Origin: an uncultured Methanosarcinales archaeon
GTDB lineage: Archaea > Nanobdellota > Nanobdellia > Woesearchaeales > DATGWN01
DNA: 64,000 nt
Direction: 5' to 3'
NCBI GenBank assembly: GCA_964624275.1
Contig: CAZUXP010000002.1
Coordinates: forward strand, 497-64,496
The position numbers and the translations under genes are program-made. Of the stretch, positions 1 to 45,400 are shown one piece after another (within the stretch, counting starts at the first letter, position 1; each line of letters begins with the position of its first letter). The notes beneath the pieces were generated by a model. The model did not search any database. It saw only the letters and a list, made by a program, of their open reading frames with translations, and was not told where the DNA came from.

Positions 1-1
1 T

Positions 2-133: not shown

Positions 134-179
134 TTTAATTTCGTACCTTTTATAAAAGATTTATTTTTACATACAAATC

Positions 180-1946: not shown

Positions 1947-2037
1947 TAAAAAAAACACGAATATATCAAGCGCTGTACGTATTAATATTATTGGGTCTTC
2001 TGACTATTAGTGCATCATTAGTTGCAAGAATGGCATA

Positions 2038-3891: not shown

Positions 3892-3970
3892 ATTTTTCTA
3901 AAAAAACTTCTGACATAAAAATATTGTGTTTAAAATGCAAACATTCAAAAACTAATACTGCGTATTAAGT

Positions 3971-4462
3971 ATGATTATGAGAGAATCATTTTTAAAAGGG
4001 TTAGGCTTTGGTGTTACATCAGGTGTTGTAACAACTGTTGGACTACTCATGGGTCTGGCTGCAAGTACTCAAGCAATTATTCCCGTAGTCAGTGGAATCC
4101 TTATTATTGCCGTTGCTGATTCTTTATCAGATTCATTTGGTATATATGTCGAAGAAGAGTCTACAAATGGCAATTCTCTTGCTCAAATAAAAGAAGCAGC
4201 ATATGCGACATTTGTTGCAAAATTCTTTGTTGCAATTTCATTCATCTCATTTTTTATATTTTTCCCATTAAAATTAGCTGTTTTTATCAGTGTTATATGG
4301 GGTTTGACGTTAAGCGGTATATTTAGCTTGTATCTCGCAGGAATCAAAGGCAAAAAAAGAATACCTTTTGCACTAACACATGTTGCATTAACACTTTTTG
4401 TCATACTTTTATCCCATTATATTGGAACTTTTATTAATGTGTTTTTCACAATATATGGATGA
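3971..4462 (+). CDS. integral membrane protein (weak resemblance to the VIT1/CCC1 half-fold)
   Basis: Four or five predicted TM helices; an AVADSLSDSFGIYVEEES segment resembles the AGAiSMalGEYvS region of VIT proteins. Confidence 0.3.
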   Translation: MIMRESFLKGLGFGVTSGVVTTVGLLMGLAASTQAIIPVVSGILIIAVADSLSDSFGIYVEEESTNGNSLAQIKEAAYATFVAKFFVAISFISFFIFFPLKLAVFISVIWGLTLSGIFSLYLAGIKGKKRIPFALTHVALTLFVILLSHYIGTFINVFFTIYG

Positions 4463-4525
4463 AGATGTGTACTCACTAAATAATAGAAACATTTATAAAC
4501 ATCTTATAATTAACTACTCATTATC

Positions 4526-5302
4526 ATGAGAAAAATACAAATTTCAATGTTATTAGCGCAACTTTTTGCGATGGTTTTTGTACTTGGTACGATTACGACA
4601 TTAGGTGAAACGTCCCTCTTTTTACAGCTTTTATTTATTCCAATTTATGCTGTTTTATTATTATTATCATTTATCGGAAATACTCGAAGTATGATAGCCT
4701 CGGCGGGAGTATTTACAATCGTATTATTATTAAACGTAATTTACTTAATTGTAACTAACATTACGCTATATACTATCGGATTGATGCTTGTAGCATTATA
4801 TTTGATGTTAAGTTTTTTATTTGCATCATTAATTCCAACTCGAAAAATTGAACAAGAAGTTGTAGTTGAGCCAATTCGTCCACAAAAAATTTCAAGTCAA
4901 CAGCAAAATGAAGTTTCAACAAAGCAGAATAATCTCGAACAACCAAAAGTTGTTGTTTACAAAGCAAAACCAGCGAAAAAAGTTGTGAAAAAAGCTCCGA
5001 AGAAAAAAGCTCCGAAGAAAAAAGTTGCAAAGAAAGTCGCTAAAAAGAAAGTTGCAAAGAAAAAAGTAGCGAAGAAAAAAACCGTGAAAAAATCAGTAGC
5101 GAGAAAATCAGCGAAAAAAGTTGTGAAAAAACCAACTCAAAAAAAAACCGTGAAAAAATCAGTAACGAAAAAACCAACTCAAAAAAAAACCGTAAAAAAA
5201 TCAGTAACGAAAAAACCAGCGAAAAAAGTTGCGAAAAAAACAACGCAAAAGGTTGTGGATACTGAAGACGGAAAACAAATCGTCATTAATATTCAGAATT
5301 AA
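4526..5302 (+). CDS. membrane protein with a C-terminal lysine-rich tandem-repeat (histone H1-like) tail
   Basis: N-terminal ~110 aa has 3-4 TM helices. The C-terminal ~110 aa is (KKxAKK)n with a perfect KKPTQKKTVKKSVT duplication. Confidence 0.6.
   Translation: MRKIQISMLLAQLFAMVFVLGTITTLGETSLFLQLLFIPIYAVLLLLSFIGNTRSMIASAGVFTIVLLLNVIYLIVTNITLYTIGLMLVALYLMLSFLFASLIPTRKIEQEVVVEPIRPQKISSQQQNEVSTKQNNLEQPKVVVYKAKPAKKVVKKAPKKKAPKKKVAKKVAKKKVAKKKVAKKKTVKKSVARKSAKKVVKKPTQKKTVKKSVTKKPTQKKTVKKSVTKKPAKKVAKKTTQKVVDTEDGKQIVINIQN
4976..5261 (+). repeat. in-frame tandem repeat encoding the KK-rich tail (about 42-bp units)
   Basis: Direct repetition of ...aaaaaaccaactcaaaaaaaaaccgt(g/a)aaaaaatcagtaacgaaa... 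within the CDS. Confidence 0.6.
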
Positions 5303-5798
5303 TTTTTTTCTTTTTTTTCTTAAGTGAAAAACGAAGTATGTTTGTTTCTTTTTGCAATATTAACAAAATAACTCCAAAAGTAATTGCGATGTCTGCGATA
5401 TTAAATATCGCAAAAAATGGTATTGAAAAAAAATCAACGACACCTAAATCATAAACAAGTCTGTCAACCAAATTACCAATAGCGCCACCTAAAATCAAAC
5501 CTAAACTGAAATAGTATTTTGGATGTACTTTTGAAAATGAGTATAGTATAAAAAGTATAATTGCACTTACTAAAAGTGTGATTACCCATTGGTGATTTGC
5601 AAAGAATCCAAAAGCGACTCCAGAATTCCACGCAAAGTGAAGATATAATACATTTGGTATTAGTGATATGGGAGATTCTCCTTTAAGATAAAGTAATGCG
5701 AGTTCTTTAGATACTCTATCGATTAATACAATAATGCTTATAATAATGCAAACAAAGAATAGTGTTTGTTTTTTCTGAATCATTTCATATATTACCAA
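5286..5798 (-). CDS. lspA: lipoprotein signal peptidase (signal peptidase II)
   Basis: All LspA signature blocks are present: NSGVAFGFF, GGAIGNLVDRLVYDLGVVDF and FNIADIAITFGVILLIL, with 4 TM helices. The true start is probably the internal Met at about 5783. Confidence 0.8.
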   Translation of the reverse strand: MVIYEMIQKKQTLFFVCIIISIIVLIDRVSKELALLYLKGESPISLIPNVLYLHFAWNSGVAFGFFANHQWVITLLVSAIILFILYSFSKVHPKYYFSLGLILGGAIGNLVDRLVYDLGVVDFFSIPFFAIFNIADIAITFGVILLILQKETNILRFSLKKKKKKINSEY

Positions 5799-6199
5799 TA
5801 TTGTTTTTGTTCAGGATGAGCCGTTGTTTTGAGTTGTTGTTCAATATTTGATACTCTGTGATTCAGATTTTGTAGTTCTGAACGAATCAATTCTAATCGA
5901 GATAAAATAAGCTCAACGTCTCTTGTAGTGATTTGTGTCTCGTTTTGATGTGTTTGTTGTTCAATTGGTTGATTTTGTGATTGTGTATTTTGTGAACTAA
6001 ATGATGATTGCATATTGTGTAATTCAGGCATTTCAAAATTAGCTGAGTTATCAGTAAATGGATTAGAGCTGAGGTGATTAGATTGTTGTTTTGCATCATC
6101 ATTAAATGGATCGGACGATTGTAATGGGTCTTTTGCAGTTGAAAAATCACTATCAAAATTTTTATCGTCATGCTTCCAAAATTTTAGATTATCAAACAT
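5792..6199 (-). CDS. hypothetical Q/S/N-rich protein with a C-terminal coiled coil
   Basis: Long ORF with good coding potential. Low-complexity N-terminal half, then a heptad-like ELILSRLELIRSELQNL segment. Confidence 0.45.
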   Translation of the reverse strand: MFDNLKFWKHDDKNFDSDFSTAKDPLQSSDPFNDDAKQQSNHLSSNPFTDNSANFEMPELHNMQSSFSSQNTQSQNQPIEQQTHQNETQITTRDVELILSRLELIRSELQNLNHRVSNIEQQLKTTAHPEQKQYW

Positions 6200-6392
6200 A
6201 GTTACCTCTTTTAGTATGAAAATACTTTGTTCATTTAAAAATATTTATGTTTTACAGACTTTGTCCTAATTTTCAAAATATATGAATAGTAAAATATGTT
6301 AACTCATCAAATTACGTTTTTTGTATTACAATAATCAAGTCATGTTTGCACATTTTCAAGCTAATTTTTGAGATACGGTCTATTTTATATTT

Positions 6393-7025
6393 TTGACACA
6401 AACATTTTATATATCAGATTTATACTTCTATCATGTTATGGCAGATATAAATGTCCTTTTAGAAACAACAAATACAACTTCGTCGATTAATTCGTTTACA
6501 GATATTTTATTTAATGTAGTTGTTACAAATGTAACACTCGCTTTGCTCATCATTGTAATTGGTTTATTTACGGGTCAATTAATTAAAAAATTAATATTAA
6601 AATTTTTTAAAGAGTTTCATATCAATGAAATTATCTATTCAACAAATGTTATTCAAACAAAAATAGATGAATTAGTTGCATCTATTGTTGCATGGTTTAT
6701 ATATGTGTTTGCAATCTTATTTTCATTGCGTCAATTAGGTTTAGCAACGGTTATTGTAAACATTATTTTTGCATTTATTTTGCTCATAATTTTAGTGCTT
6801 ATATTCTTAAGTTTTAAAGACTTTATACCAAATTTATTAGCCGGCCTGATAATTCATAAAAAAAAATATATGAAAAAAAATGATGAGATATCACTTCACC
6901 TTGTGAAAGGAAAGGTCGAAACAGTTGATTTATTACATACGCATATTATAACAAGAAAGGGAGATTCGATTCGGGTTCCAAATTCGTATATAATCAAACA
7001 TCGATTAACTGTTAAAAAAACATAA
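6393..7025 (+). CDS. small MscS-like mechanosensitive channel protein
   Basis: Three TM helices followed by GKVETVDLLHTHIITRKGDSIRVPNSYI, which matches the MscS beta-domain motif (T.i.t.dg..i.iPNs). Confidence 0.5.
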   Translation: MTQTFYISDLYFYHVMADINVLLETTNTTSSINSFTDILFNVVVTNVTLALLIIVIGLFTGQLIKKLILKFFKEFHINEIIYSTNVIQTKIDELVASIVAWFIYVFAILFSLRQLGLATVIVNIIFAFILLIILVLIFLSFKDFIPNLLAGLIIHKKKYMKKNDEISLHLVKGKVETVDLLHTHIITRKGDSIRVPNSYIIKHRLTVKKT

Positions 7026-7050
7026 TTTTTCATTTAAAAGTGATTCTAAA

Positions 7051-7062
7051 CTTTTATATACC
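7051..7062 (+). promoter_or_regulatory. candidate TATA box for ppsA (cttttatatacc); SD-like aagaggt sits 6 nt before the ATG
   Basis: AT-rich TATA-like element about 70 nt upstream of the 7121 start, plus an AGGTG-type ribosome-binding site. Confidence 0.25.
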
Positions 7063-7120
7063 TCTAAATTCATTTTTTTATACTCGATTTAAAAACATTG
7101 AGAAAAAGAGGTAGATTTTT

Positions 7121-9535
7121 ATGAATAAAGATACAAAATTCATTCTTTGGTTTGATCAACTTGGCATTGAAGACGTTCCGCTTGTAGGTGGAAAAAACGC
7201 ATCCTTAGGTGAGATGTATAAGGAATTAACTGCAAAAGGTGTAAAGGTTCCAAATGGGTTTGCAATTACCGCACATGCATACAGATATTTACTTGAGCAA
7301 ACAAACGCGATTGACAAAATTCGCGATATATTATCAGATTTAGATACATCTAATATGGATAATTTAGCTGAACGCGGTGAAAAAGTTCGATATCTAATTC
7401 AGCATTTAGAATTTCCAGATGACTTACGTGATGCAATATATATAGAATATGAAAATCTTTCAAAATCATATGATAAAGAGTTTGTTGATGTTGCAGTAAG
7501 AAGTTCAGCAACAGCTGAAGATTTACCTGATGCTTCATTTGCAGGTCAGCAAGAAACATATTTAAATATTCGAGGAAAAGAATCACTTATTCTTGCATGT
7601 AAAAAATGTTTCGCGTCTTTGTTTACAAATCGGGCAATTTCATATCGAGTTGATAAAAATTTCGATCATTTCTCAATTGCATTATCAATAACAATCCAAA
7701 AAATGGCGCGTTCAGATTTAGCATCAAGTGGTGTAATGTTTTCACTTGATACAGAATCCGGTTTTAAAGACGTAAGTTTTATTACGTCGGCGTATGGTTT
7801 AGGAGAAAATGTCGTGCAAGGTGCTGTGAACCCTGACGAATTCTATGTTTTTAAACCAACATTAAAAGAAGGTTATCGTTCAATTATTTCAAAAACATGC
7901 GGTGAGAAAGCAATTAAAATGATATATACGCATGATATCAAGAATCCTGTGAAAAATGTTGCAGTTGCACCGGAAGATCAAAAAAAATTCTCGATAACTG
8001 ATGATGAAATTTTAAAATTAGCCGAATGGTCAGCAATTATTGAAGATCATTATTCTCAAAAAGCAGGACATCATAAACCAATGGATATGGAGTGGGCAAA
8101 AGATGGTGAGAGTGGCGAATTATTTATTGTACAAGCTCGACCTGAAACAGTTCATTCACAAAAAGATGTCAGTAAATTAACTAAATCTGTTTTAAAAGAA
8201 AAAGGAAATGTTATTTTAAAAGGTAAATCAGTTGGTGAATTAATTGGTGCTGGTGATGTAAATGTCATTAAAGATGTACACAATATTAGTCAATTCAAAA
8301 AAGGTCAAATACTTGTAACTGATATGACTGATCCTGACTGGGAACCGATAATGAAAATTGCATCAGCAATTGTGACAAATCGTGGTGGAAGAACATGTCA
8401 CGCCGCTATTATTTCACGTGAACTTGGGATACCATGTGTTGTTGGAACATCTAATGGGAGTGAAACACTCAAAAACGGACAAAAAGTAACAGTTGACTGT
8501 TCGCAAGGTGATGATGGATATATCTATGACGGTTTATTACACTTTGATATTGAAACTGTTGATTTAGGTGAACTTCCAAAACTCAACACAAAAATAATGA
8601 TGAATTTAGCAAATCCTGAACAAGCATTTGAACAGTCATTCATTCCAAATGAGGGAGTTGGACTTGCACGTGAAGAATTCATAATTAACACTTCGGTTAA
8701 AGTTCATCCATTAGCGTTGATGAATTATGATTCGTTAGAAGATGAAGAGTTAAAGCAGACGATTGCAGATCACACACATGGATATGCTGATAAGACTCAA
8801 TTTTTTATCGATAAATTAGCTGAAGGAGTTGGAAGACTCTGTGCAGCGTTTTATCCAAAACCCGTAATTTTGCGTTTTTCAGATTTTAAAACAAATGAAT
8901 ATGCAAACCTAATTGGTGGAAAAGCGTATGAGCCAAAAGAAGATAATCCAATGATTGGATGGCGGGGAGCATCGCGTTACTATGATCCAAAATATAAAGC
9001 GGCATTTGGTTTAGAATGTGAAGCAGTAAAAAAAGTTCGAAATGAAATGGGTCTCAAAAATTTAAAAGTTATGATTCCATTTTGTCGAACAGTTGATGAA
9101 GCTAAAAAAGTTATTGGCGTAATGAATGAATACGGACTTAAGCAAGGAGATGATGGATTCCAAGTAATGGGTATGTGTGAAATTCCTTCTAATGTATTAT
9201 TGGCTGAAGAATTCTTAGACATCTATGATGGATATAGTCTTGGAACTAACGATTTAACGCAATTAATACTTGGTGTTGATAGGGATTCAGAACTTGTTGC
9301 ACATGTGTATGATGAGCGAAATGATGCAGTAAAAAAGATGGTTAAACAAGTAATTGAGATTGCAAATAAAAAAGGTAAATATATTGGTATTTGTGGTCAA
9401 GCACCATCTGATTATATTGAGTTTGCAGAATTTGTTGTTGAATGCGGAATTCAAACAATGAGTTTAAACCCCGATACGGTTATTAAGACTTGGTATAAAA
9501 TTGCAGAAGTTGAAAAACACGTTAATAAACAATAG
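7121..9535 (+). CDS. ppsA: phosphoenolpyruvate synthase (pyruvate, water dikinase)
   Basis: Full 804-aa PEP-utilising enzyme architecture: catalytic His region GGRTCHAAIISRELGIPCVVG and a C-terminal PEP-binding TIM-barrel block. Confidence 0.9.
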   Translation: MNKDTKFILWFDQLGIEDVPLVGGKNASLGEMYKELTAKGVKVPNGFAITAHAYRYLLEQTNAIDKIRDILSDLDTSNMDNLAERGEKVRYLIQHLEFPDDLRDAIYIEYENLSKSYDKEFVDVAVRSSATAEDLPDASFAGQQETYLNIRGKESLILACKKCFASLFTNRAISYRVDKNFDHFSIALSITIQKMARSDLASSGVMFSLDTESGFKDVSFITSAYGLGENVVQGAVNPDEFYVFKPTLKEGYRSIISKTCGEKAIKMIYTHDIKNPVKNVAVAPEDQKKFSITDDEILKLAEWSAIIEDHYSQKAGHHKPMDMEWAKDGESGELFIVQARPETVHSQKDVSKLTKSVLKEKGNVILKGKSVGELIGAGDVNVIKDVHNISQFKKGQILVTDMTDPDWEPIMKIASAIVTNRGGRTCHAAIISRELGIPCVVGTSNGSETLKNGQKVTVDCSQGDDGYIYDGLLHFDIETVDLGELPKLNTKIMMNLANPEQAFEQSFIPNEGVGLAREEFIINTSVKVHPLALMNYDSLEDEELKQTIADHTHGYADKTQFFIDKLAEGVGRLCAAFYPKPVILRFSDFKTNEYANLIGGKAYEPKEDNPMIGWRGASRYYDPKYKAAFGLECEAVKKVRNEMGLKNLKVMIPFCRTVDEAKKVIGVMNEYGLKQGDDGFQVMGMCEIPSNVLLAEEFLDIYDGYSLGTNDLTQLILGVDRDSELVAHVYDERNDAVKKMVKQVIEIANKKGKYIGICGQAPSDYIEFAEFVVECGIQTMSLNPDTVIKTWYKIAEVEKHVNKQ

Positions 9536-9547
9536 AGGGCAGAAGCC

Positions 9548-10098
9548 CTATTTTTTTTCTTTTTCTAAAAATGTTGTTACTTTATTTCTGAGATTTTCTA
9601 AATTAGAATTGTTGTGTATGATGTAGTTTGCTTTTTGAAAACAAATTTTAGTTTGTTGTCTTTTTATATTTGGGTGAATTCCTTTATCGATATCATCAAT
9701 AAGTTTGAATTCATCGAGATTATTTGGATCATTTTCTCTATTTCGTGTAATAATTCTTTGTGCTCTTACTTTAAATGATGCATCTAAACCTATGAGAACA
9801 AAGTATGGGAGTGTTTGAAAAAAATTAATTTCTGCGACATTTCTTATTCCTTCTATAACGTAATGTGAATTAGGTTTAAGTGATTTTGCAATTCGTTTAG
9901 CCCAATAATCCCCCCATATTTTTTAACTTTTTCATATCCGATTTTTTGGAGATTTTTACGATTAAGTGTAATATGTTGATTCATCGCTTCTTTTCGAACC
10001 TCATCACCAAATGATTTTTTTTCAAATCCATTTTCAATAAAAATTTTAGCAAGCTCTGTTTTTCCTGATCCGATAAATCCTGTTATACCAATTATCAT
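9548..10098 (-). pseudogene. P-loop nucleotide kinase (dephospho-CoA kinase-like), frame broken at a G6 homopolymer
   Basis: N-terminal ORF carries the P-loop IGITGFIGSGKTE. The C-terminal 110 aa continue in the +1 frame straight after the C6/G6 run at 9910-9915 (...VIEGIRNVAEINFF...). Either a true pseudogene or a homopolymer sequencing error. Confidence 0.5.
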
Positions 10099-10532
10099 TT
10101 TATACTCTTAATAAAATTCTCACAGCAATTTTCTATAATATGAAACACTTCGTCAAAATTTAATTCATAATAAGGATCAGGTATTGATGATAATTTTGGT
10201 TCGTGAAAATCTCCTAACAATTGTACTTTTATTTTTTGTGTATCATTTTGACAGTATGAAAGTACATCTTGCATTCTCTCTGGATCGGAAACTAAAATAT
10301 AATCAAAGGTGTTAAGATCTTCAAATTGAAATTGTTGTGGTTTATGATTTATATCAATACCGTAATGCTTTGCAACACGCAGTGTTTTAGGATGTGCATT
10401 TGAAAAACTCAGTTCAGCATGTGTTCCAGCAGAATCAACAATCCAGTTTGGTTGTAATTTTTGTAAAATTGCATGCCCTGTTGGTGAACGACAGACATTT
10501 CCGTGACAGACAAAGAGTATCTTTTGTTTCAT
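10095..10532 (-). CDS. low-molecular-weight protein-tyrosine phosphatase / arsenate reductase family
   Basis: CX5R P-loop at the N-terminus (KILFVCHGNVCRS) and a DPYY motif near the C-terminus. The start is taken at the internal Met (MKQKILF). Confidence 0.8.
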   Translation of the reverse strand: MKQKILFVCHGNVCRSPTGHAILQKLQPNWIVDSAGTHAELSFSNAHPKTLRVAKHYGIDINHKPQQFQFEDLNTFDYILVSDPERMQDVLSYCQNDTQKIKVQLLGDFHEPKLSSIPDPYYELNFDEVFHIIENCCENFIKSIK

Positions 10533-10623
10533 AGTTTTTATGTGAGTATGAGTGTTTAAATAGATTACGACATAAAACTTTATAAACAAACTTATTTATA
10601 ATATGTACTAAAAGAGGTGTTTT

Positions 10624-11610
10624 ATGATTAAAGTAGCAATTAATGGTTTTGGCCGAATAGGTCGAATGGTGTATAGGGTTCTCAGAGAAGATAGTGATGT
10701 TGAAGTTGTTGCAGTAAACGATTTAACGGATACGAAAACATTAGCACATTTATTAAAATATGATTCAGTTCATACACGAATACCAAATGTGAGTTTTACT
10801 GATTCACAAATCGTTGATAATGGAAAACATATTCAAGTGTATGCACAAAAAGATCCATCTCAATTACCTTGGAAAGATTTAGACGTTGATGTTGTAATTG
10901 AGTCCACAGGTTTTTTTACAAAGCGTGAAAAAGCTGCATTACATTTACAAGCGGGTGCGAAGAAAGTTATTATTTCAGGACCAAGTGGTGATGCTGATAT
11001 TGTTATCGTAAAAGGTGTAAATGAGCATGATTATGACAAAGAAAAGCATCATATTATTAGTAATGCGAGTTGTACAACAAATTGTTTAGCACCAATGGTT
11101 AAAGTTTTAGATGATAATTTTGGTATTAAACGAGGATTTATGACAACAGTTCATTCATATACAGGTGATCAGCGTCTTGTAGATGCGCCACATAAAGATT
11201 TACGGCGTGCAAGAAGTGCAGCAGTCAGTCAAATTCCAACATCTACAGGAGCTGCAAAGGCAGTTGCACAAGTCATTCCAAAGATGGCTGGAAAATTAGA
11301 TGGCATGGCGATCCGAGTTCCAACACCTGATGGTTCAGTCACAGATTTTGTGTGCGAATTAGAAAAATCAACAACAATTGAAGAAATTAATTCGTTATTT
11401 CAAAGCGTTTCAAATAATCACCTAAAAAGTATTTTAGAATTTACCACAGATGAAATTGTTTCTCAAGATATTATTGGAAATCCACATTCAGTCATATTTG
11501 ATTCAAAATTAACAAAAGTGATGGATGGAAATTTTGTAAAAGTTATTGGATGGTATGATAATGAATGGGGTTATTCGAATCGTATGGTTGATATATTAAA
11601 ACTCTTATAG
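10624..11610 (+). CDS. gap: glyceraldehyde-3-phosphate dehydrogenase, type I (bacterial/eukaryotic type)
   Basis: NAD-binding NGFGRIGR, catalytic SNASCTTNCLAP, and an AGGTG Shine-Dalgarno sequence upstream. Confidence 0.9.
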   Translation: MIKVAINGFGRIGRMVYRVLREDSDVEVVAVNDLTDTKTLAHLLKYDSVHTRIPNVSFTDSQIVDNGKHIQVYAQKDPSQLPWKDLDVDVVIESTGFFTKREKAALHLQAGAKKVIISGPSGDADIVIVKGVNEHDYDKEKHHIISNASCTTNCLAPMVKVLDDNFGIKRGFMTTVHSYTGDQRLVDAPHKDLRRARSAAVSQIPTSTGAAKAVAQVIPKMAGKLDGMAIRVPTPDGSVTDFVCELEKSTTIEEINSLFQSVSNNHLKSILEFTTDEIVSQDIIGNPHSVIFDSKLTKVMDGNFVKVIGWYDNEWGYSNRMVDILKLL

Positions 11611-11689
11611 AGTCTTGTCAATACCGTATTTGTGAACTTTAATTTGGTTCACAATTTTATTTTTAACAATTAGTAACATCGTATAACTC

Positions 11690-11780
11690 TGTGGTTTTAT
11701 GACTACTGTCCATCTTGCCTAAATACGTTTGTGTACAAGGAAAAATCTTGTTTTCCGTGCACAAATAGATATTTTGTTTT
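11690..11780 (+). ncRNA. candidate small RNA or conserved intergenic element, copy A
   Basis: About 75% identical to 40990-41080 (shared TGTCCATCTTGCCnAAAT...TACAAGGAAAAA...TTTTyCnCGCACA). A TATA-like box lies about 27 nt upstream, and a hairpin plus T-run downstream. Confidence 0.3.
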
Positions 11781-11936
11781 TTCATGAATATTTGGAAAGT
11801 TATGTATTCTAAAGGTATTGAAGATATGGTTGTTCAACCATCAAAGTGTCCTATGACTTTATGTAAAATTTAATGCTTTTTTGTCGCCAACTATATTTTA
11901 GATAAATTTATTAACCTATTTAATTCCTAAAGGAGC

Positions 11937-12320
11937 ATGATATCAATAAGTGAATTAAAAAAATTCATCAATGAAACACATAAAAAACAAATGTTTGATT
12001 GTCGTAATATTGCAATTGATAATTATGAGGAAGAAATTATAACTCGAAATAATGAACTACAAAATTTTGCGAAACATTTTGAGGTTATGTTCAGTTCAAA
12101 TGAAGTAAGTGAAGAAAAGTTAATCGATGTTTATAGTTTGTATATACAACATATAATCAATTTTTTTGAAGCAGTTGAAAAAAAAACTTCTAATCTCACT
12201 AAAAGCGTTTTAAATGAACAACTAAATATGTTAATAAATAAGCACCAAAAACTTCAAGTAAGCAACATAGTATCGGTATCAACAATCGTGGATGAGTTGA
12301 TACAATTATGTAAAAAATAG
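11937..12320 (+). CDS. hypothetical all-helical protein
   Basis: 127-aa ORF with an AGGAG RBS, immediately upstream of the ParA-like gene. No recognisable motif. Confidence 0.4.
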   Translation: MISISELKKFINETHKKQMFDCRNIAIDNYEEEIITRNNELQNFAKHFEVMFSSNEVSEEKLIDVYSLYIQHIINFFEAVEKKTSNLTKSVLNEQLNMLINKHQKLQVSNIVSVSTIVDELIQLCKK

Positions 12321-12357
12321 GCAAACATTTATATATATCTCAGTAATTCAATTTGAA

Positions 12358-12379
12358 ATAGTTTTTCGCCAAAAACTAT
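12358..12379 (+). promoter_or_regulatory. perfect 9-bp inverted repeat ATAGTTTTT-CGCC-AAAAACTAT upstream of the ParA-like gene; a related half-site lies at 11877-11894
   Basis: Palindrome seen directly in the sequence. The related motif TTTTTGTCGCCAACTAT lies upstream of the preceding gene. Confidence 0.35.
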
Positions 12380-12396
12380 GAAAAAGGTGTTTTGTT

Positions 12397-13212
12397 TTGA
12401 GAAAAATTTGTATAATTAATCAAAAAGGTGGTGTTGGAAAAACAACTGTCACAGTAAATTTAGCAGCAGGTCTTGCACGAGCTGGTAAAAAAGTTCTGCT
12501 TATTGATTTAGACCCACAGGGCAATTTAGCAACATGTTTGCCAATTAGCGAAGAAAAAAAAAATATGTATCACATATTAATTGAAAATGCAAATCCGCTT
12601 GAATGTATTCATCGCGTAGCAATCAATTTAGATTTGATATCGTCAGATGAACAACTTACAAAAGCAGAATTATTATTAGCAACTGAACCTGCGCGTGAAT
12701 ATATTTTATCAAAGCGATTAAAATCAATTAAAAAATATGATTATGTATTTATTGACTGTCCACCATCATTGGGACTTTTAAATCAAAATGCTTTATTATA
12801 TTCACAAGAAGCTTTTATTCCAGTATCAACTGATACACTTGGTATAGATGCACTTGTAAAAATGGAAAAGGCAATTACTGTGCTAAATGACGTATTTTCA
12901 CATGATTTAGAAATAGGTAAAATAATCCCAACACAGTACGATAAACGAATTAAAATTTGTCGAACAAGTCTCGCTGAAATTCAAAATATTTCGTATGAAA
13001 AAGTCACAAATCCGATTCGCATAAATTCGAAAGTAAAAGAATGTGTGAGACATAAAAAGTCTATTTTTAGTTATGCGCCTTCAAGTCCAGGTGCCGTTGA
13101 TTTTAAAGAACTCGTTCGAAACATCTTATATCAAAACGAAATGGGTGACAGTGATGTTACACTTTCTTTAGATATAAAAGAAGGGAAAAAGCAAGCATCA
13201 TCTAAAAGTTAA
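12397..13212 (+). CDS. ParA/MinD/Soj-family P-loop ATPase
   Basis: Deviant Walker A NQKGGVGKTT, LIDLDPQGN, and Walker B YVFIDCPP. Confidence 0.85.
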   Translation: MRKICIINQKGGVGKTTVTVNLAAGLARAGKKVLLIDLDPQGNLATCLPISEEKKNMYHILIENANPLECIHRVAINLDLISSDEQLTKAELLLATEPAREYILSKRLKSIKKYDYVFIDCPPSLGLLNQNALLYSQEAFIPVSTDTLGIDALVKMEKAITVLNDVFSHDLEIGKIIPTQYDKRIKICRTSLAEIQNISYEKVTNPIRINSKVKECVRHKKSIFSYAPSSPGAVDFKELVRNILYQNEMGDSDVTLSLDIKEGKKQASSKS

Positions 13213-13218
13213 AAAAAT

Positions 13219-13517
13219 GGAAGGGAATAAGCCACCTTCTGTAAGATTTCACTTTTGTGAAGAATCTTTGGGAACATGTAACTAAGCGGATTAAACCTTG
13301 CACTTGTCAGGATGTCCGTTTCATCCATTCTTACATATAAACTCAGTTTGTTAACTCAATTCGGTTACCCAAATTTTCAAAACATCATCGCTAAATGTAA
13401 GGGGTCTCGTTTCTGTTACAGAGCCAATGATTACTCATTCTTAGTTTGCACCAAGTGACATACACGCAGTGGGTGGACTTTCCTCAGCAGTAACTACCGT
13501 CGGTTCCCTACCCTTCC
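13219..13517 (-). ncRNA. rnpB: RNase P RNA
   Basis: Minus-strand transcript with P1 formed by 5' GGAAGGG and 3' CCCUUCC. CR-I GAGGAAAGUCCACC lies near the 5' end and CR-V ACAGAAGGUGGCUUA near the 3' end, with a P4 pairing CCACC/GGUGG. The island is GC-richer than its AT-rich surroundings. Confidence 0.75.
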
Positions 13518-13585
13518 AAATTGTAGGAACAAATATTTATTTAAAAAAGTATGTATTATGTGGATATGAGATAGATGTTTCTAAT

Positions 13586-14710
13586 TTATCTCAAACATTG
13601 AATTACGAATAATTCAGATTTACCCATAGAAATAGTCTGTGTTTGAATTTTTTTAAAATATTCTTTTGCAATTTGACATACAAAATTACTATTGTTTGTT
13701 AAAAGTGTGATTGTTCCATTTTTTGAGAGAACTGCTAAACTTCGTTTGAAAAATTGGTGATACGTTTTTGACAATTTTGCTTGTGTGTGCTCTGAATAAT
13801 ATGGTGGAACAGTTATTATTTTATTAATTGAGTTTGGTTCAAATTTAGTGTCGATCCAATCAACATCAATTCGACTAACAGATATTGCAGGAAGTACACC
13901 TGCAATTTTTGCGTTTTTTTTTGTTGCATCAACACATTTTGCGAGGATATCGCTTGCAATAAGTTTTTGTGTTGGTTCTGTAATGTTTTTATCTATTTCT
14001 GATAACATATTTATTGATGTTTGAAAAAATGGTTTGAGGTTAAAAAGTGTTAAATCTTCTTTTTGATAAAATCGTGGACTTTTATTTGTGCAAAAAAATG
14101 CTGATTCAATCATAATTGAACCTGAACCGCAAAAAGGATCAAGTACGATATCTGTTTTTAAAACAGTACTTTTATACCATAATCCTGCTGCTACTGTTGA
14201 GCGAATTGTTGTAGGGGATGTGTAAATTTTATATTCTCTTTTTTCTAAATTACTCTGAACAAGGTCAATACCTATAAAAACTTGGTCGTGTAAGTATTGA
14301 ATATGGACTGTGACTACTGGTTTTGTTACATTGACTGTTGCATCAGGAATTTTTTTTTTAATTAAAGAACCGCAGAAGCTTCCAATTTCTTGCATATCTT
14401 CACCTAGTATTTTTGCAACAACTTTAAATGAATGTGTTTTATCAATCCATATATTCCAATCATATGCACTGATGACTTTTTCTAAATCTATTTTCATAGT
14501 TTGTTTTTCAAATTTAAAAGAATCGATATATGCTAAAACTTTTAGTGCAAGTTGGTTTTTATAAACATAAAAGATCGCTTGGTTGGTTGAACAGTTTTGA
14601 ATATAACAACATTGAGGGTATGGTGATGTTGCTTTTAGATGTAATATATGTTTGATTTCTTTAAGACATTCTTCTTCAAATCCTTTATCACAAAAAATGA
14701 GTAAGTTCAT
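13586..14710 (-). CDS. THUMP-domain tRNA (guanine-N2) methyltransferase (Trm14/TrmN-like)
   Basis: SAM motif I DPFCGSGSIMIESAFF and motif IV ITVPPYY, with an N-terminal THUMP-like region. Confidence 0.6.
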   Translation of the reverse strand: MNLLIFCDKGFEEECLKEIKHILHLKATSPYPQCCYIQNCSTNQAIFYVYKNQLALKVLAYIDSFKFEKQTMKIDLEKVISAYDWNIWIDKTHSFKVVAKILGEDMQEIGSFCGSLIKKKIPDATVNVTKPVVTVHIQYLHDQVFIGIDLVQSNLEKREYKIYTSPTTIRSTVAAGLWYKSTVLKTDIVLDPFCGSGSIMIESAFFCTNKSPRFYQKEDLTLFNLKPFFQTSINMLSEIDKNITEPTQKLIASDILAKCVDATKKNAKIAGVLPAISVSRIDVDWIDTKFEPNSINKIITVPPYYSEHTQAKLSKTYHQFFKRSLAVLSKNGTITLLTNNSNFVCQIAKEYFKKIQTQTISMGKSELFVIQCLR

Positions 14711-14807
14711 AAAAAAGTAACAAGTTTATCTTGTTTTTAAAGTGTTCTGTTTTGTATATTCTTATTCACAACAAACTATTTAAACTCAAACATAATCAAT
14801 ATATACT

Positions 14808-15377
14808 ATGACTCAAACAGAAGTTATTGACAACGAAAATATGCAAATTATTCATGGCGAAACATGTCCTATTTGTCTTAGAAAAACACTCACATTAATT
14901 GAAGAAGAACGTGAAATCCCATATTTTGGAAAAGTGTTTTTATTTGCGATGACTTGTCAACATGCTGAATGTGGTTTTCATAAATCAGATATTGAGGCTG
15001 CTGAAATTCGTGAACCTTGCTCTATTCAATTTGAAGTGAGTGGAGATGATGATTTATCAGTACGTGTGGTAAAAAGTGCTAATGCGACTGTTAAAATACC
15101 TCGTATTGTCACAATAGAATCTGATGAAACTGCTATTGGATATATTTCAAATATAGAGGGATTATTTAACAGAGTTAAATCTATTTTAGAATCTATTCGT
15201 GATTCATCAGATAATCCGGATGAAGTAAAAAAAGCTAAAAACCATCTTAAAAAGATTCAACGAATACTTTGGGGTAAAGATAAAATAACTATTACTATTG
15301 AAGACCCCTCGGGTAATTCTGCAATAATTAGTGATAAAGCAGTTGTAAAAAAGTTATCAAAACCCAAGAAAAAATAA
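14808..15377 (+). CDS. ZPR1-type zinc-finger protein
   Basis: CPICLRK...IPYFGKVFLFAMTCQHAEC matches the zf-ZPR1 pattern. Confidence 0.5.
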   Translation: MTQTEVIDNENMQIIHGETCPICLRKTLTLIEEEREIPYFGKVFLFAMTCQHAECGFHKSDIEAAEIREPCSIQFEVSGDDDLSVRVVKSANATVKIPRIVTIESDETAIGYISNIEGLFNRVKSILESIRDSSDNPDEVKKAKNHLKKIQRILWGKDKITITIEDPSGNSAIISDKAVVKKLSKPKKK

Positions 15378-22953: not shown

Positions 22954-23300
22954 TCATCTTATTGGGATTTGATTAATAGATGATACTGCAGTACAGCCGT
23001 TATCAGTATATGAACCACTATACACACAATTATTTACCCCATCAGATGAAATATTTACCCAATAAGAATTTGAAATAGTCCCCCCATCAGCTACATTACT
23101 CACTAAACCTCCCTGCGTCACATTTACATGTATAACACTTGTATAACTATTTGAAATTTCAATATAAGCTTCACTATACCCACTAAACCACCACCAAAGC
23201 AAACATGAGCATCATCACTATGATTAATCCAGCAATTAGTTCTAGTACAAGAGCATATGTATATCCAACAAGACCCTAAAGGTTCACAAAAACCATTTCC
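22954..23300 (-). pseudogene. degraded fragment of a GLUG-repeat surface protein gene
   Basis: Three frames carry ISNSY/GGLVx pieces and a hydrophobic GLVGYTYALVLELIAGLIIVMMLMFALVVV segment. No single frame is open across the region. Confidence 0.3.
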
Positions 23301-23361: not shown

Positions 23362-23901
23362 ATGGAACACATTTGTTACGATTTATTTGAAGAACTCAAA
23401 GAGCCTATGCACATAAGGGAACTTGCAAAAAGGTTAAGAACAAATCATACTACTATCATAAGAAAACTAAATGAACTGGAGAAAAAAAATGTTGTCGATT
23501 TTGAATTTGAAGGTAAAAACAAGCAATATTTCAGGAAAAAAAGCCTTGAGTCCGCATTTTTCAAAAAACAAGTAGAATACCAAAAAATATTAGATTTTAT
23601 AGAAAAAAATCCTCAATATCGACAACTAATTGAAGACATTCTAAAAAATCAGAGTATTAAATTAGCAATTATTTTTGGTTCTTATGCAAAAAATACACAA
23701 GTAAAATCAAGTGATTTAGATTTATTTATCGAAAATATTTCAAAAGACATTATAAAAAAAGTAACAATACATAATGCGAATATATCTATTAAATCAGGGA
23801 AAATCGATAAAAATTCCTTGTTAGGAAAAGAAATACACAAAAAACATATTATCATTAAAGGAGTGGATTATTATGAACAAATTTATCAAGAAATTATGTA
23901 A
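23362..23901 (+). CDS. HTH-fused minimal nucleotidyltransferase (MNT), HEPN-partner type
   Basis: N-terminal wHTH (LAKRLRTNHTTIIRKLNELEKKNVV) and an NTase motif GSYAKNTQVKSSDLDLFI. Confidence 0.7.
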   Translation: MEHICYDLFEELKEPMHIRELAKRLRTNHTTIIRKLNELEKKNVVDFEFEGKNKQYFRKKSLESAFFKKQVEYQKILDFIEKNPQYRQLIEDILKNQSIKLAIIFGSYAKNTQVKSSDLDLFIENISKDIIKKVTIHNANISIKSGKIDKNSLLGKEIHKKHIIIKGVDYYEQIYQEIM

Positions 23902-24340
23902 AGAACAAACGATTAAAATTACAGAACCAAGTATTGAAGTTTGTGAATCATATCAAAAAAAATCTAAGAAATCGCTTTTATCAGCAAGAGCACTTATTGA
24001 TATTGAAAACTTTGACGATGCAACCGCTCTCACATATTACTCCATGTATTACATGGCTCTTGGTTTATTATATAAAACAGGAATTAAATCTGAAAATCAT
24101 ATGGGAACAATTTTACTTCTTGAAAATTTGTTTGACATAAATATTGAAATTATCAAACAAGCAAAAAAAGATCGTGTTGATAAACAATACTATACTGATT
24201 TTGAAGCAACAAAACAAGATGTTGAAGAAGGAATTGAAATTGCACAAGAATTTAATGCAAAAATTAAAAACATTATTGATACCAGTAAACAAATTGAATT
24301 AGAAAAGAAAAAAATACATTTTGAAAACGCTTATTTTTAG
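23873..24340 (+). CDS. HEPN-domain protein (partner of the upstream MNT)
   Basis: Overlaps the MNT gene by 29 nt. All-helical ~155 aa with a HEPN-like ...SENHMGT... motif region. Confidence 0.55.
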   Translation: MNKFIKKLCKEQTIKITEPSIEVCESYQKKSKKSLLSARALIDIENFDDATALTYYSMYYMALGLLYKTGIKSENHMGTILLLENLFDINIEIIKQAKKDRVDKQYYTDFEATKQDVEEGIEIAQEFNAKIKNIIDTSKQIELEKKKIHFENAYF

Positions 24341-24465: not shown

Positions 24466-25965
24466 TTACCTCGCTTCGCACCCACTTGGATTCGTTCCAC
24501 TTGGAGCTGGATTGCTATCACCTACACAAGCACCAGGATCTCCACTTGAATGATTTACCCAAGTGTTTGTGCCGGTGAGTGTTGCACCACCGCCTGTTCC
24601 AATTAATCCGCCACAATATGTTCCAGTGCACGTAATTTGACTAGTTGTGTAACTATTTGAAATATCATCATGTGTATACCCAACCAAACCACCAACTTCA
24701 GCTCCACTTCCACTCACTGAACCAGTTGCATAACTGTTAGCAATGTCAGCAGAAAGACCAACAAGACCACCAACTCTATTTCCACTTCCACTCACTGAAC
24801 CAGTTGCATAACTATTTAAAATAGTACCACTCTGTGTAGAACCAACAAGACCACCGACTATATCCTCGCCAGTCACTGAATTAGTAGCATAACTATTTGA
24901 AATATCATCATACCCATACCCAACCAAACCACCAACTCCCTCTCCACTTCCACTCACAGAACCAGTAGCATAACTGTTGGAAATAGGATCCCATGTCCGC
25001 CCAACAAGACCACCAACTCCCTTTCCACTTCCACTCACTGAACCAGAAGCATAACTGTTAGCAATGTCAGCAGAATTAGAACCAACAAGACCACCGACAT
25101 AAGTTGAACCAGTTATGTCAACATCAACAACACCGATATCATAAATATTTGAACCTGAATCAGCATATCCAAACAATCCTTGATAATCATCTGATTCTCT
25201 ATCAATAAATAAATTTGCAATAACAAACTCTCCGCCATCAAAAGTGCCTTCAAAAAGATCAGCCCAATCTGTTCCTATCGGCTCCCAACCACCTTCACCA
25301 TTACTTTCAGTAAAATCAACGCCAAACTCTGCTAAACACCGATTAAAATCAATGGAATTTTGCATCGTATGATTTTCATCTAAATTATCCCTAGTTTTAT
25401 TCAAATCAACACAAGTACAAATCGGAATCGGATTAACTGAATCATCATGACAACCATCAATAGAGTCATTCCAATAATTATTGGATTGTATCGTATTCAA
25501 ATACTTATTCGAAACAGAACCAACCAATAACACATCATCGCCTTCTTGGCTATATGAAGCATCATTTGAAATATCAGTCCAATTTATTTGAATCGGCCAT
25601 GAAATAGTATCTGATTCTAATTCATAGACATTCTGACAAGTAATTTCCAAAGAACGTCCCGAACGTATCTGATGACGAGTTCCATAAAAAAATAAACATT
25701 GTTCGCCATTTATACTCATCGTATCAATTCGAACAGTATTTGGATGATTATTAGTTAACGTAAACACTGTATCATAATCAGACACCGCATAATCACTAAT
25801 CCCAATTGTTTGGGTTTGCAATATAAGTCGAGCTTGTTGTTCAGAAATACCTGAACCAAGTCCTGGAATACCACCTAAGACATTAACAACAATTAAGGCA
25901 ATAATAATTACAACAGCAGTAATAATCAAATATTCAGTTGCTGTTTGGGATTTGAGAGGTTTCAT
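24466..25965 (-). CDS. archaeal class-III (type IV pilin-like) signal-peptide protein with GLUG repeats
   Basis: N-terminus MKPLKS/QTATEYLIITAVVIIIALIVV is the prepilin motif (K-S|Q-T-A-x-E-Y-L + hydrophobic). Its C-terminal half has about 7 tandem ~20-aa units NSYATGSVSGSGxGVGGLVG (GLUG motif). Confidence 0.7.
   Translation of the reverse strand: MKPLKSQTATEYLIITAVVIIIALIVVNVLGGIPGLGSGISEQQARLILQTQTIGISDYAVSDYDTVFTLTNNHPNTVRIDTMSINGEQCLFFYGTRHQIRSGRSLEITCQNVYELESDTISWPIQINWTDISNDASYSQEGDDVLLVGSVSNKYLNTIQSNNYWNDSIDGCHDDSVNPIPICTCVDLNKTRDNLDENHTMQNSIDFNRCLAEFGVDFTESNGEGGWEPIGTDWADLFEGTFDGGEFVIANLFIDRESDDYQGLFGYADSGSNIYDIGVVDVDITGSTYVGGLVGSNSADIANSYASGSVSGSGKGVGGLVGRTWDPISNSYATGSVSGSGEGVGGLVGYGYDDISNSYATNSVTGEDIVGGLVGSTQSGTILNSYATGSVSGSGNRVGGLVGLSADIANSYATGSVSGSGAEVGGLVGYTHDDISNSYTTSQITCTGTYCGGLIGTGGGATLTGTNTWVNHSSGDPGACVGDSNPAPSGTNPSGCEAR
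24700..25160 (-). repeat. tandem ~60-bp coding repeats (GLUG units) inside the pilin-like gene
   Basis: Repeated ...ccaccaactccctctccacttccactcac(a/t)gaaccagt(a/t)gcataactgtt... units. Confidence 0.6.
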
Positions 25966-26099
25966 TTTTAACCTCCAAAAGAAATAATTAATTCAGTATG
26001 TGGTATCATAAAATAAACTTATTTTTTTATTCTTTTTAAATATATTGTTTTGATAAAACCATATTGAAAAAATCACGTAACTAATTCTTACATCAATTT

Positions 26100-42421: not shown

Positions 42422-45400
42422 TTACTTAGTACCTTTTATTCGAGTGAAAGCACGTTCGATATCATCTTTGCTCCATTCTGTTGTTAATAAAAATTCTCGA
42501 AGACGTTTTTCACTAATACCTTTTTGCAATTCTCGTTTCATATACGCGGTTAGTTGCGGATATGGATCTTGGGATAATGAAACACTAATCGGTGGTTGGT
42601 TTTGTTTAGAAACAGTCTTCTTGCTTTTCTTTGAAATTACAACAGTTGCACCAACAATACCAACAATCATGAATATTCCGACAAGCACTATTAAAACATT
42701 AAATGAAGAGATAATTCTTGATAAAATGGAAGAATCTGTTTGTTCATCTTCAGTTTCATCTTCAGTTTCTGACTGAGGAGGTTGTTGAGGTCTTGGAGTT
42801 GGTGTTGATTGATTCGATAATGATTCTTCTTGTGTTGTATTCTCAACATCTTCATCAGTTTCTTCTGATTGTGAAGGAGGAGGAATTGAGACGCTTCCAC
42901 TTGAACCGCTTCCAGGACTACCACTACCCGGACTACCGCCAGGACTACTTGTTGTACAACTCTGCGTTGTACTAGGTTTATTCGTTGTTAGCCCACAACT
43001 ATTTAGATCTACAACTGTTCGTGTCTGTGTTGAACCTGAACAACTACCCCACGAACCAACTTGCCAATCAACTGTACACATCTGAGTTACCCCTGAATAT
43101 GTTAAACCTGAAATATTGTATAATGTCGAACTACTATTTGTAATGGTGTATTGACTTGGAATTGTTGAAGAATCGTTTAATACTACATAATATTCATTTG
43201 CTGCATCACAATTTGCTGAAAACTGTGATATTGAGGTAAATGATGCATCTTTAATACAAATACTATTATGTTTTGTTAAATCACCAGTTAAATTGATAAA
43301 CAATGATTTAGTCACACCCGAACTTAATTGTAAACCTTTCACAAAAATGCTTGCTTTATTTTCTTTTTGACTTGATTGTAATATTATTCTTGTAAGATTC
43401 AAAGGAGATTGACTTAAATTATCACTATATGAAACAAGTGGTGTATTTGAAGATGATTTTATTTGAACGCTTACTGGATTTTGCGAAGTATTCTGAGTCA
43501 AATTATCACTTCCATTGACAAAAATCATAATATCTTCCTGATTTGTTGCAACATTAGTTGTATTTCCAACAATCGTACCCTCTGTATTTTGACTTATTTG
43601 TTGTGAGTCTAAACTTACATTTACTTGTACTGTTGTTTGATTCACAAATCCAAATCTATCTTCAGCACTAAATGTAATATTAAATACTCCATATTCTAAA
43701 ATATATACTGAACCTAATAACGTGTCACTTGTTATAAATTCACTTGCATCAATTGTTGTACTCCCTATCATATATGATGCATCCGTAATATTCCTATTAT
43801 ATGAAATATTTATTGGAATTTCAAGTTTTGTAATATTTTGATGAGTTGAGTTTGGTTGATCAAATAACGTGTATTGTAATGGCGTTGTATTAATAAAAAT
43901 CTCGTGTGATGCAGAACTCACCCCTACACTATTATTCGCATAAAATATTAATTCATATTCACCATCAGATAAATTAATTACTGTTGGTGCAGTATAGGTT
44001 TGATTATTCGTTGTATTGTAAAAATAGAGTGTGTCTGCATCATCTGCTTCAAACTCAATAAGTATTTGATTCGTGCCATAGTATGAATTATTTAATGGAC
44101 TTATTACAGTGATATTCGGCTTTGAACTTGGTAAAGGAGTTGTTTCATTTATTTTAACACTAAAAGTCCTATTTTGAGATATCGTTTCATTTAAAGTATT
44201 GTTAACCCAAAATGTTAACGTATGTGTTTTATTATTCGCAAATGTGATTAGTTGTGAAAGCGAACTGTTTTGTACAATTCCCAATACATCATTTGTTTCA
44301 TTTGTTACCCACATATACGAAACATTTTCGGATGAGGAATCAAGCGCAGTTGCATTTACCCAGATACTTGTCGTATTATATGTTATATTTAATGGACTAT
44401 TGATTATTAAATCCATACCATTAAAATCCACAGTAATATTAAATGAAGTCCAATTTATATTTCCCGCTTCATCGGTTGCAGTAAAATTAAGTGTGTAATT
44501 ACCATTTGCCAAAATATGGTTAAATGATTCATTGTAAACTAATGTTGTACCATTTCCAAGATTAATTTGCCTTAAAATGTTTTGCGGTAATGAAACATCA
44601 TCACTTACACTAATATTAAATAGTACATTTTTTGTTGTATTAAATACTTCATTTTCTTGTGGACTATGAACAGTAAGATTTGGTTTGATTGAATCTTGCA
44701 CATATGTTACATTAATTTTAATTATGTTTGTATTATTTACCGAATCATTTGCATATAATGTGATTTCATAAGGCGTATTCAAAACTAAATTTGTTAAATT
44801 AAAAATGAGCGTTTCATTATCAGTCGAATTAAAAGGACCAAACTCTCCTGTTTTATTTGTTGTTGCCCAAAATCGAGAAACATCAGATAAACCAGTTTTA
44901 ACTGAATTTGAAAATGCGGTTACATTAATCGTAACATTTTCAGTATATACAATTGAATCAGGCGATAATATTGTTATATTAGGTGCTTTTCTATCAAAAT
45001 AAAATTCAACTAATTCGTTTGAGATTAAACCTTCCGTATCATTTGCAAAAAATTCAATCTCATATTTTTTATCTTGTGTGAATGTCCGCATTACAACAAA
45101 ATCAGGTTCGCTAATATTGTATGGTTTTATATCTTGTGGAACATATGAAACACCGCCTATTTCAAACCATAAATGTGAAACATTCACAAATAAATCTGTT
45201 GCAGTAAAATTAATTAATAATTGGCCATTTGCATTCGTATATATTTTTTCGCTAATTGGACCAGATATATTTAAAATAGGAGGCGCAGTATTATCCGTAT
45301 TAATTCCAAAAAAAAGAGTTTGAGTTGATGAACGATTGTTTGTGTCTGTTACATTTATTTGAACCTTATAAGATGTTTGATTTGCCAATGTTATAGAATC

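Follow-up and report, generated by a model that had tools for sequence, protein, structure and literature searches.

What kind of protein joins an archaeal prepilin-type leader to a long array of GLUG repeats, and what would such a protein do at the cell surface? The question is raised by a gene at positions 24466..25965 on the minus strand (stop codon included) of a 64 kb stretch of DNA, hereafter the window, from contig CAZUXP010000002.1 of an uncultured archaeon. The open reading frame (ORF) opens with an ATG, is preceded by an in-frame stop codon nine codons 5' of it and encodes 499 residues, with a predicted mature length of 493. An earlier note on this DNA, made from the letters alone, had given about 490 residues for the mature protein and had placed both the ORF and its class III N-terminus, MKPLKS|, where we find them, the latter now seen as a conserved cleavage motif of a whole family. 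The gene is delimited by the ORF list, by full-length homologs (P0002, P0007, P0015 and P0092, 41–68% identical to the target protein) and by an AlphaFold2 (AF2) model of the full-length target, with a mean predicted local distance difference test score (pLDDT) of 91.9 and a predicted template modelling score (pTM) of 0.87. Our preferred interpretation, to which we give a probability of about 0.7, sees in the protein a minor type IV pilin of modular build, encoded by a DPANN (Woesearchaeota/Nanobdellota-like) archaeon, that acts as a pilus-carried adhesin. The adhesive pilus subunit or tip protein proposed earlier is thereby supported, by homology, the cleavage motif, matches to pilins of solved structure, the operon context of a stand-alone homolog (P0153) and the β-helix model, which we take up in turn.

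The N-terminus of the target reads MKPLKS|QTATEYLIITAVVIIIALIVV. Residues 1–6 (25948..25965, minus strand) form, as judged from a family alignment (A2), a class III leader with Lys at position −2, Ser at position −1 and a predicted cleavage site between S6 and Q7; the mature part opens with QTATEYLII and runs into a hydrophobic helix. Residues 7–30 (25876..25947, minus strand), defined by the alignment, the AF2 model and a sub-threshold match to PF04021, comprise Q+1, E+5 and the hydrophobic α1 helix, after which comes an invariant GGIPG hinge; in YLIITAVVIIIALIVV, 16 uncharged residues follow E+5, and the model places the helix at residues 9–30. When the six-frame translation of the window was scanned with a relaxed motif, this was the sole class III-like N-terminus. 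In 98 homologs, position −2 is occupied by Lys (81 sequences) or Arg (14), that is, by Lys/Arg in 95 of the 98, position −1 is Ala (60), Gly (25) or Ser (13) in all of them, the median leader is five residues long, and both Q+1 (Q7) and E+5 (E11) are kept in 98 of 98. Also invariant in this set are Y12, L13, I15, A23, L24, G31, G32, I33, P34 and G37, and the conservation of the cleavage motif extends to 13 GLUG-type members of the family. Conservation of the motif across the 98 homologs is hard to explain without constraints imposed by cleavage and assembly. The alignment supports the prediction of a class III (prepilin-type) N-terminus, the criteria for which were taken from the wording of reviews and not from the exact FlaFind rule. 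Gln+1 with Glu+5 is the mark of substrates of the Methanococcus pilin peptidase EppA, not of FlaK or generic PibD (PMC4371748). Of the earlier proposal of a prepilin-type signal processed by a PibD/FlaK-like peptidase, the first part therefore stands and the second needs refining, since the invariant Q+1 and E+5 point to an enzyme of the EppA/Epd type.

What follows the leader is a globular domain in its own right. Residues 7–152 (25510..25947, minus strand) make up the α1 helix and a β-sandwich head that contains C90 and C110, and the AF2 model resolves this region into a helix (residues 9–30), a flexible hinge, a short helix and a β-sandwich (residues 54–152). Residues 1–152 are homologous to more than 100 stand-alone proteins of about 150 residues (33–45% identity, E values of 1e-13 to 1e-22 for query residues 1–256), several of which bear the source name "class III signal peptide-containing protein" and many of which are labelled Woesearchaeota or Nanobdellota. 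In the 98-sequence alignment, this part of the target spans the whole length of the stand-alone pilins, which end at ...LEGTCA, where the target runs on. The sole significant match of the pilin-module family profile to a protein of solved structure is the Aap pilin of S. acidocaldarius (8q30_A; E 6e-4), and it takes in the hydrophobic helix, the G-IPG hinge and the β-sandwich. Moreover, the top Foldseek matches in the PDB include the archaeal type IV pilins 8q30 (E 1e-3), 8fk7, 8fj5 and 6w8u. The head of the target is homologous to subunits known to polymerise. By these homologies, the N-terminal part is a complete pilin module of about 150 residues, more than a signal, which makes the protein a predicted "modular pilin". 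AapB (8q30) is a stand-alone major pilin of 141 residues that PibD cuts at an RA|LS site and that, unlike the target, has no C-terminal module.

The C-terminal part of the target is built on seven GG[LI][VI]G rungs at residues 291–452, with a period of 26–27 residues and the triplet NSY opening six of them, in keeping with the roughly seven tandem GLUG units that the earlier note had counted. PF07581 (Glug) matches six stretches, with a score of 79.7 bits (cutoff 20.5) and an E value of 8e-23. The rungs are encoded by a tandem array of 81-nt (27-residue) repeats at 24599..25098 on the minus strand (Tandem Repeats Finder: period 81, 5.5 copies, 73% matches), in which six in-register DNA copies at 24599–25067 are 61–85% identical. 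All seven rungs belong to a right-handed parallel β-helix (residues 241–470; 24556..25245, minus strand). On its N-terminal side lie a linker, short and helical in the AF2 model, and a Cys-rich cap (together residues 153–240; 25246..25509, minus strand), with the motif GC..D....PIPICTCVDLN...QNSIDF.RC...GWEPIG...F.GTFDG; the four cap cysteines, C172, C183, C185 and C210, as well as D, L, W and P residues, are invariant in 14 members (alignment A3). On its C-terminal side lies a Cys-containing tail (residues 471–499, W.NHS..D...C.G.....C; 24466..24555, minus strand), recognised from homologs and from the AF2 model, where its pLDDT is 60–69; this family-specific end cap contains C480 and C496 and is kept in P0002, P0007, P0009, P0028, P0032 and P0092. 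The model gives the GLUG repeat, which is poorly understood, a defined structural context, that of a predicted disulfide-capped β-helix effector module.

The β-helix model, which is of high confidence, matches the GLUG domains of IgA1 proteases. The GLUG β-helices with which it was compared are those of the M26 IgA1 proteases of S. pneumoniae (6xja/7jgj) and G. haemolysans (7uvk) and that of BACOVA_03286 from Bacteroides ovatus (3n6z). The GLUG-bearing IgA1 enzymes are proteases, in which the β-helix is a substrate-binding and gating domain that binds Fab (PMC7695701). It had been held that the GLUG motif is best known from bacterial adhesins of the IgA1-protease type; the occurrence in bacterial IgA1 enzymes is correct, whereas the term adhesin is not, the relatives being proteases and their GLUG domain a binding module. 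In contrast to the M26 proteases, the target is without an M26 catalytic domain, HExxH, G5 or LPXTG, and its β-helix bears a DPANN-specific four-Cys cap and is attached to a pilin. Two other identities were tried and rejected. For an M26 IgA1 protease (ZmpA), there was no match to the Pfam M26 catalytic domain, NF046017 (ZmpA) scored 7.7 bits against 3000, and no HExxH was found; for a substrate-binding protein of the Sulfolobus bindosome type, Pfam and NCBIfam gave no match to a substrate-binding protein, and the fold is a β-sandwich with a β-helix.

The combination found in the target is one of many built on the same carrier. An exhaustive phmmer search with residues 1–262 against 1.84 billion representatives returned 1485 matches at E<=1e-3, including about 20–25 clusters that span pilin and cap in one stretch, and are pilin–GLUG fusions, and dozens more proteins of 290–640 residues in which the pilin module is followed by a different part. 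Among 52 other pilin-module proteins searched with Pfam, Lcl_C was found in 14 and a ConA-like lectin domain (Laminin_G_3) in 5; further modules included GLUG, a neurotoxin receptor-binding domain, β-propellers, DUF285, BspA-type leucine-rich repeats, discoidin, FG-GAP, dockerin and PKD (examples of such fusions are P0248, P0122, P0150, P0157 and P0138 in alignment A4). The modules attached to this kind of pilin carrier are largely of the binding type. In a neighbour-joining tree of the pilin modules, made without bootstrap and from a sample biased by the query, the modular proteins group together, apart from about 80 stand-alone pilins of about 146 residues, P0153 among them.

It is P0153, 39% identical to the module of the target, that ties this kind of pilin to a pilus machinery, its gene lying directly downstream of a pilus operon in another assembly (locus L030, GCA_964354685.1). 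The locus (1–10477) codes for a T2SSE ATPase and two T2SSF proteins (the ATPase and platform genes were identified from precomputed Pfam matches), four small, minor-pilin-like proteins with class III-like N-termini, a large secreted protein and a major pilin. A similar minor-pilin cluster, with two pilins, is found at 9510–15293 of locus L004, and genes for KaiC-like ATPases lie near both. L030 and L004 are complete DPANN type IV pilus loci; no A24 peptidase was found within 10 kb in either, and when the ORFs of loci L001–L029 were screened with simple motifs, neither an ATPase nor an A24 peptidase was recovered. At a further locus (L034), a modular pilin of another kind stands after two tandem stand-alone pilins. 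The two-gene split platform is a hallmark of system 1 (Epd-like) of the archaeal type IV filaments (TFF), reported in methanogens and DPANN, and system 1 includes class III proteins with adhesin-like or galactose-binding domains (2026 survey). In M. maripaludis, this system (Epd, or TFF system 1) consists of the pilins EpdA–E, the peptidase EppA, the ATPase EpdL and the split platform EpdJ/K. The Q+1/E+5 processing site of the target is of the same kind as the Epd sites KGQ[VIL] and RAQI (PMC4371748) and, as in the Epd system, relatives of its pilin module adjoin an ATPase gene, two platform genes and several minor-pilin-like genes. Unlike the Epd pilins, however, the target is encoded outside such an operon, and no GLUG effector has been reported for Epd systems; the likeness is one of the processing site and of the operon of relatives.

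The architecture of the target also recalls that of the bacterial modular pilins, in which adhesive modules have been joined to a pilin module of small size; these have been shown to be adhesive, and 264 architectures are on record (PMC8179133). Among them are PilB and PilC of S. sanguinis, which carry a vWA module and a ConA-like lectin module, respectively (Raynaud et al. 2021, PMC8179133; Shahin et al. 2023, PMC9934059), and PilB has been placed at the pilus tip by modelling (PMC8179133). As in these proteins, a short linker connects the small N-terminal pilin module of the target with a C-terminal one that is bulky and has no specific tie to pili and, as in bacteria, one type of carrier is combined with many effector modules. 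In contrast, bacterial modular pilins carry the N-methylation motif G|F..E, whereas the target is archaeal, with a class III signal of the Epd/EppA type (Lys/Arg at −2, a small residue at −1, Gln+1); the head is an alpha-beta roll in the bacterial proteins and an archaeal β-sandwich in the target; and the bacterial modular pilins have been studied experimentally, whereas the target is known from its sequence and a predicted model. Our homolog search also returned a bacterial protein, P0109, that combines N_methyl and T2SSG with GLUG. We take IPR011493 to be the entry for GLUG. The architecture IPR012902-IPR011493 is recorded for six bacterial proteins (Dataset S1, PMC8179133). A search of the literature available to us found no description of archaeal modular pilins or of an archaeal pilin–GLUG fusion.

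From what we observe, namely how the domains are arranged, which proteins are homologous, how the chain folds and how well the cleavage motif is conserved, we infer how the protein may be processed, assembled, placed in a filament and bound to a ligand; processing and assembly are inferred because the 64 kb window contains no gene for a peptidase, an ATPase or a platform protein. The precursor would enter the membrane through the hydrophobic α1 helix (residues 7–30), which would be its membrane anchor and, later, part of the core of the filament. The motif suggests that, at the cytoplasmic face, a class III signal peptidase of the EppA type would cut off MKPLKS, so that Gln1 would become the first residue. 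A machinery similar to that of system 1/Epd, with a T2SSE ATPase and a T2SSF platform split in two, would extract the pilin module, of about 146 residues, from the membrane, and the module would polymerise through its α1 helix with stand-alone pilins of the same family, as homology and the operon of its relatives would have it. The C-terminal part, of about 350 residues, would form a rigid, disulfide-stapled β-helix of about nine 27-residue rungs, seven of them with GLUG, held out from the filament and, because of its bulk, most probably at the pilus tip. There, the β-helix may serve as a ligand-binding (adhesive) module. This role is proposed by analogy, since the β-helix of the IgA1 proteases binds Fab and the sister modules on related pilins are of the lectin or adhesin type; its target may be the cell of a host, some other cell or a surface.

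The cap and the GLUG helix also occur away from pilins. A scan of GTDB genomes for the cap motif gave 25 loci, nearly all of them in metagenome-assembled genomes (MAGs) labelled DPANN (Woese-, Pace-, Iain-, Aenigm- and Nanoarchaeota) or "uncultured archaeon"; three loci are labelled Methanosarcinales. Giant DPANN GLUG proteins (1000–6600 residues; L005–L028) share with the target the Cys-cap P[IHK]P[IL]C[TS]CxDL...QN.ID..C, which leads into GLUG rungs, and occur in the same Woese-, Pace-, Iain-, Aenigm- and Nanoarchaeota lineages as its family. Unlike the target, the giants have Sec-type or transmembrane (TM) N-termini, no pilin module, many more rungs and several cap-plus-helix units each. 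Because the cap motif is found mostly in these non-pilin giants, the cap is not specific to pilin fusions, and because the cap and GLUG module is found on Sec/TM proteins, it does not need a pilus. It is a common DPANN surface module, which in the family of the target is grafted onto a pilin. In one MAG (CAZUDQ01; L006–L008, L010–L013 and L015) there are at least eight paralogous GLUG proteins, encoded by ORFs of 1000–3500 residues, several of which are ended by the ends of contigs; their near-identical N-terminal regions (…YEYF.TPPESNETG…DCW…PHPICSCDDLN) define a large paralogous surface-protein family. In Woesearchaeota MAG.56 (L014, 1588–2905), the gene for a pilin of 141 residues (P0149) overlaps, at its downstream end, an ORF in another frame that has no signal and goes straight into the Cys-cap and GLUG rungs; the pair is probably a pilin–GLUG fusion that has been frameshifted or mis-assembled.

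Several observations weigh against a pilus-carried adhesin. The 64 kb window lacks a prepilin peptidase, an ATPase, a platform gene and a stand-alone pilin, as judged from a six-frame motif scan and from a Pfam scan of 51 ORFs, which are most of those of at least 100 residues; none of them matched T2SSE, T2SSF, Peptidase_A24 or Arc_PepC, so that the earlier remark that no pilus-assembly genes are adjacent holds. All four GLUG-type members whose context is visible, that is, the target and three homologs, are orphans amid housekeeping genes; orphan pilin genes are common in archaea. PF04021 (Class_IIIsignal), which covers residues 7–29 of the target, scores 14.2 bits with the full protein and 16.2 bits with the N-terminal 160 residues, the gathering score being 23.7; the same profile matches 93 of the 98 homologs at E<=0.1 (best E 2.5e-6), and the gathering score is a threshold of detection, not a biological feature. 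Judged by this profile alone, a class III N-terminus would be weakly supported; it is the homology search with residues 1–256 that decides. Ser at position −1 is a minority residue, found in 13 of the 98 family members. Most DPANN proteins with cap and GLUG (1000–4500 residues) are non-pilins that start with an ordinary N-terminus of the Sec or TM type. Finally, the pilin–GLUG family is known from database sequences.

Some of these observations would fit a protein that uses the class III route for display at the cell surface, its leader being cleaved and the mature protein remaining anchored, or joining a short, bindosome-like assembly, instead of entering a long pilus, much as the sugar-binding proteins of Sulfolobus. 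The orphan position of the target and its three homologs, with no pilus genes near, is what such a protein would lead one to expect, as is the presence of the same GLUG module on Sec- or TM-anchored DPANN surface proteins that are not pilins; moreover, archaea do have large class III proteins that form no filaments, the Sulfolobus substrate-binding proteins among them (PMC4371748). The target, however, keeps a complete globular head, homologous to stand-alone pilins, one of them in a type IV pilus operon, and to the Aap filament pilin, and we consider display outside a pilus unlikely. A second alternative keeps the pilus and changes the function of its cargo: the β-helix would be an enzyme of the pectin-lyase fold, such as a polysaccharide lyase, a hydrolase or a depolymerase, carried by the pilus to degrade the envelope of a host or a substrate, and this we regard as very improbable. 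The least credible reading, with hardly any weight, takes the protein for a type II (signal-anchor) membrane protein that stays unprocessed, its likeness to prepilins being an evolutionary residue and its helix tethering an extracellular β-helix, for while it would accommodate the sub-threshold PF04021 score, the window without a peptidase gene and the non-canonical Ser at −1, a plain anchor has no use for a Glu at +5 within a TM segment, nor would it call for Q+1/E+5 to be invariant, Lys/Arg at −2 to be kept in 95 of 98 and Ala, Gly or Ser to stand at −1 throughout the 98 homologs and the 13 GLUG-type members. The modular pilin remains the interpretation that we favour.

Within the family of modular pilins, identity to the target is distributed unevenly along the sequence. 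Over residues 1–115, P0002 and the target are 100% identical, after which identity falls to 84% and, in the β-helix, to about 45–58%; P0008 is 100% identical over residues 1–72 and about 50% thereafter. In addition, the window contains, between the genes for 16S rRNA and MNT, a remnant of the frameshifted C-terminus of another GLUG-type paralogue (22954–23300, minus strand; tblastn), 1.2 kb from the target gene. The remnant is split over two frames, one matching residues 421–457 of P0015 (frame −1; E 1.4e-6) and the other the tails of P0002 and P0007 (frame −2; E about 1e-4), and it shares short DNA repeats with the array of the target. The mosaic of identities and the remnant suggest that recombination or gene conversion may have kept the carrier constant and changed the adhesive part. 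Possibly, the target belongs to a cassette-like, recombining system of pilus adhesins for partner or host specificity in episymbiotic DPANN, in which a constant carrier would be combined with rapidly exchanged β-helix "warheads". Hints in this direction are the more than a dozen binding modules found with the pilin modules and the MAG with at least eight GLUG paralogues; we nonetheless hold this to be a long shot. If true, such a system would be a parallel to the antigenic variation of pilins or to the diversification of phage tail fibres.

The window is archaeal: its GC content is about 31%, and it holds genes for an archaeal large subunit rRNA and for a small subunit rRNA, with a tRNA-Ala in the spacer, as well as one for an RNase P RNA of archaeal type. 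Given the many homologs labelled Woesearchaeota or Nanobdellota, the organism is most likely one of the DPANN archaea, which are ultrasmall, and is probably symbiotic. The neighbours of the target gene are, according to Pfam, those for arginyl-tRNA synthetase (ArgRS), Nre and an MNT/HEPN pair, and the other ORFs of the window include housekeeping genes. An A/T-rich spacer of 134 bp separates the ArgRS gene from the target; on inspection, it holds a putative ribosome-binding (Shine–Dalgarno) site, GGAGGT, 5 nt before the ATG (25971..25976, minus strand), and a TATA-like stretch upstream of GGAGGT. An exact 50-nt query from the 5' end of the target gene found no match in JGI metagenomes. The MNT nucleotidyltransferase, with an N-terminal winged helix-turn-helix, and the HEPN protein are encoded at 23362–24340 on the plus strand, convergent with the target; the two genes overlap by 29 nt and form a typical toxin–antitoxin pair. 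At 5286–5798 (minus strand), this archaeal contig codes for a signal peptidase II (Lsp, PF01252; E 8e-33); archaea are generally described as being without Lsp. The Pfam scan also revealed two giant surface proteins. One (42422–49582, minus strand), of 2386 residues, combines a signal of the Sec type with Ig-like domains (Big_7, Big_3_3 and Big_13) and is likely to be a giant surface adhesin; the other (54501–58601, minus strand), of 1366 residues, has eight DUF285 repeats and, at its start, a bacterial-type lipobox, LFFVAGC|A. Since DUF285 is found both on this protein and on pilin fusions, the same binding modules seem to be carried by anchors of three kinds, pilin, lipoprotein and Sec.

The practical value of these findings is limited, the organisms being uncultivated, and the mechanism proposed is an expected extension of known biology, in which two known components are combined. 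For the biology of DPANN archaea they may nevertheless matter, because the way in which these organisms attach to partners and surfaces is largely unknown and hardly any of their surface proteins has been assigned a role. In the target and its family, the type IV pili of DPANN archaea gain concrete candidates for their adhesive end, and the family shows that the strategy of grafting binding modules onto pilins, hitherto documented for bacteria, is also widely used in archaea.

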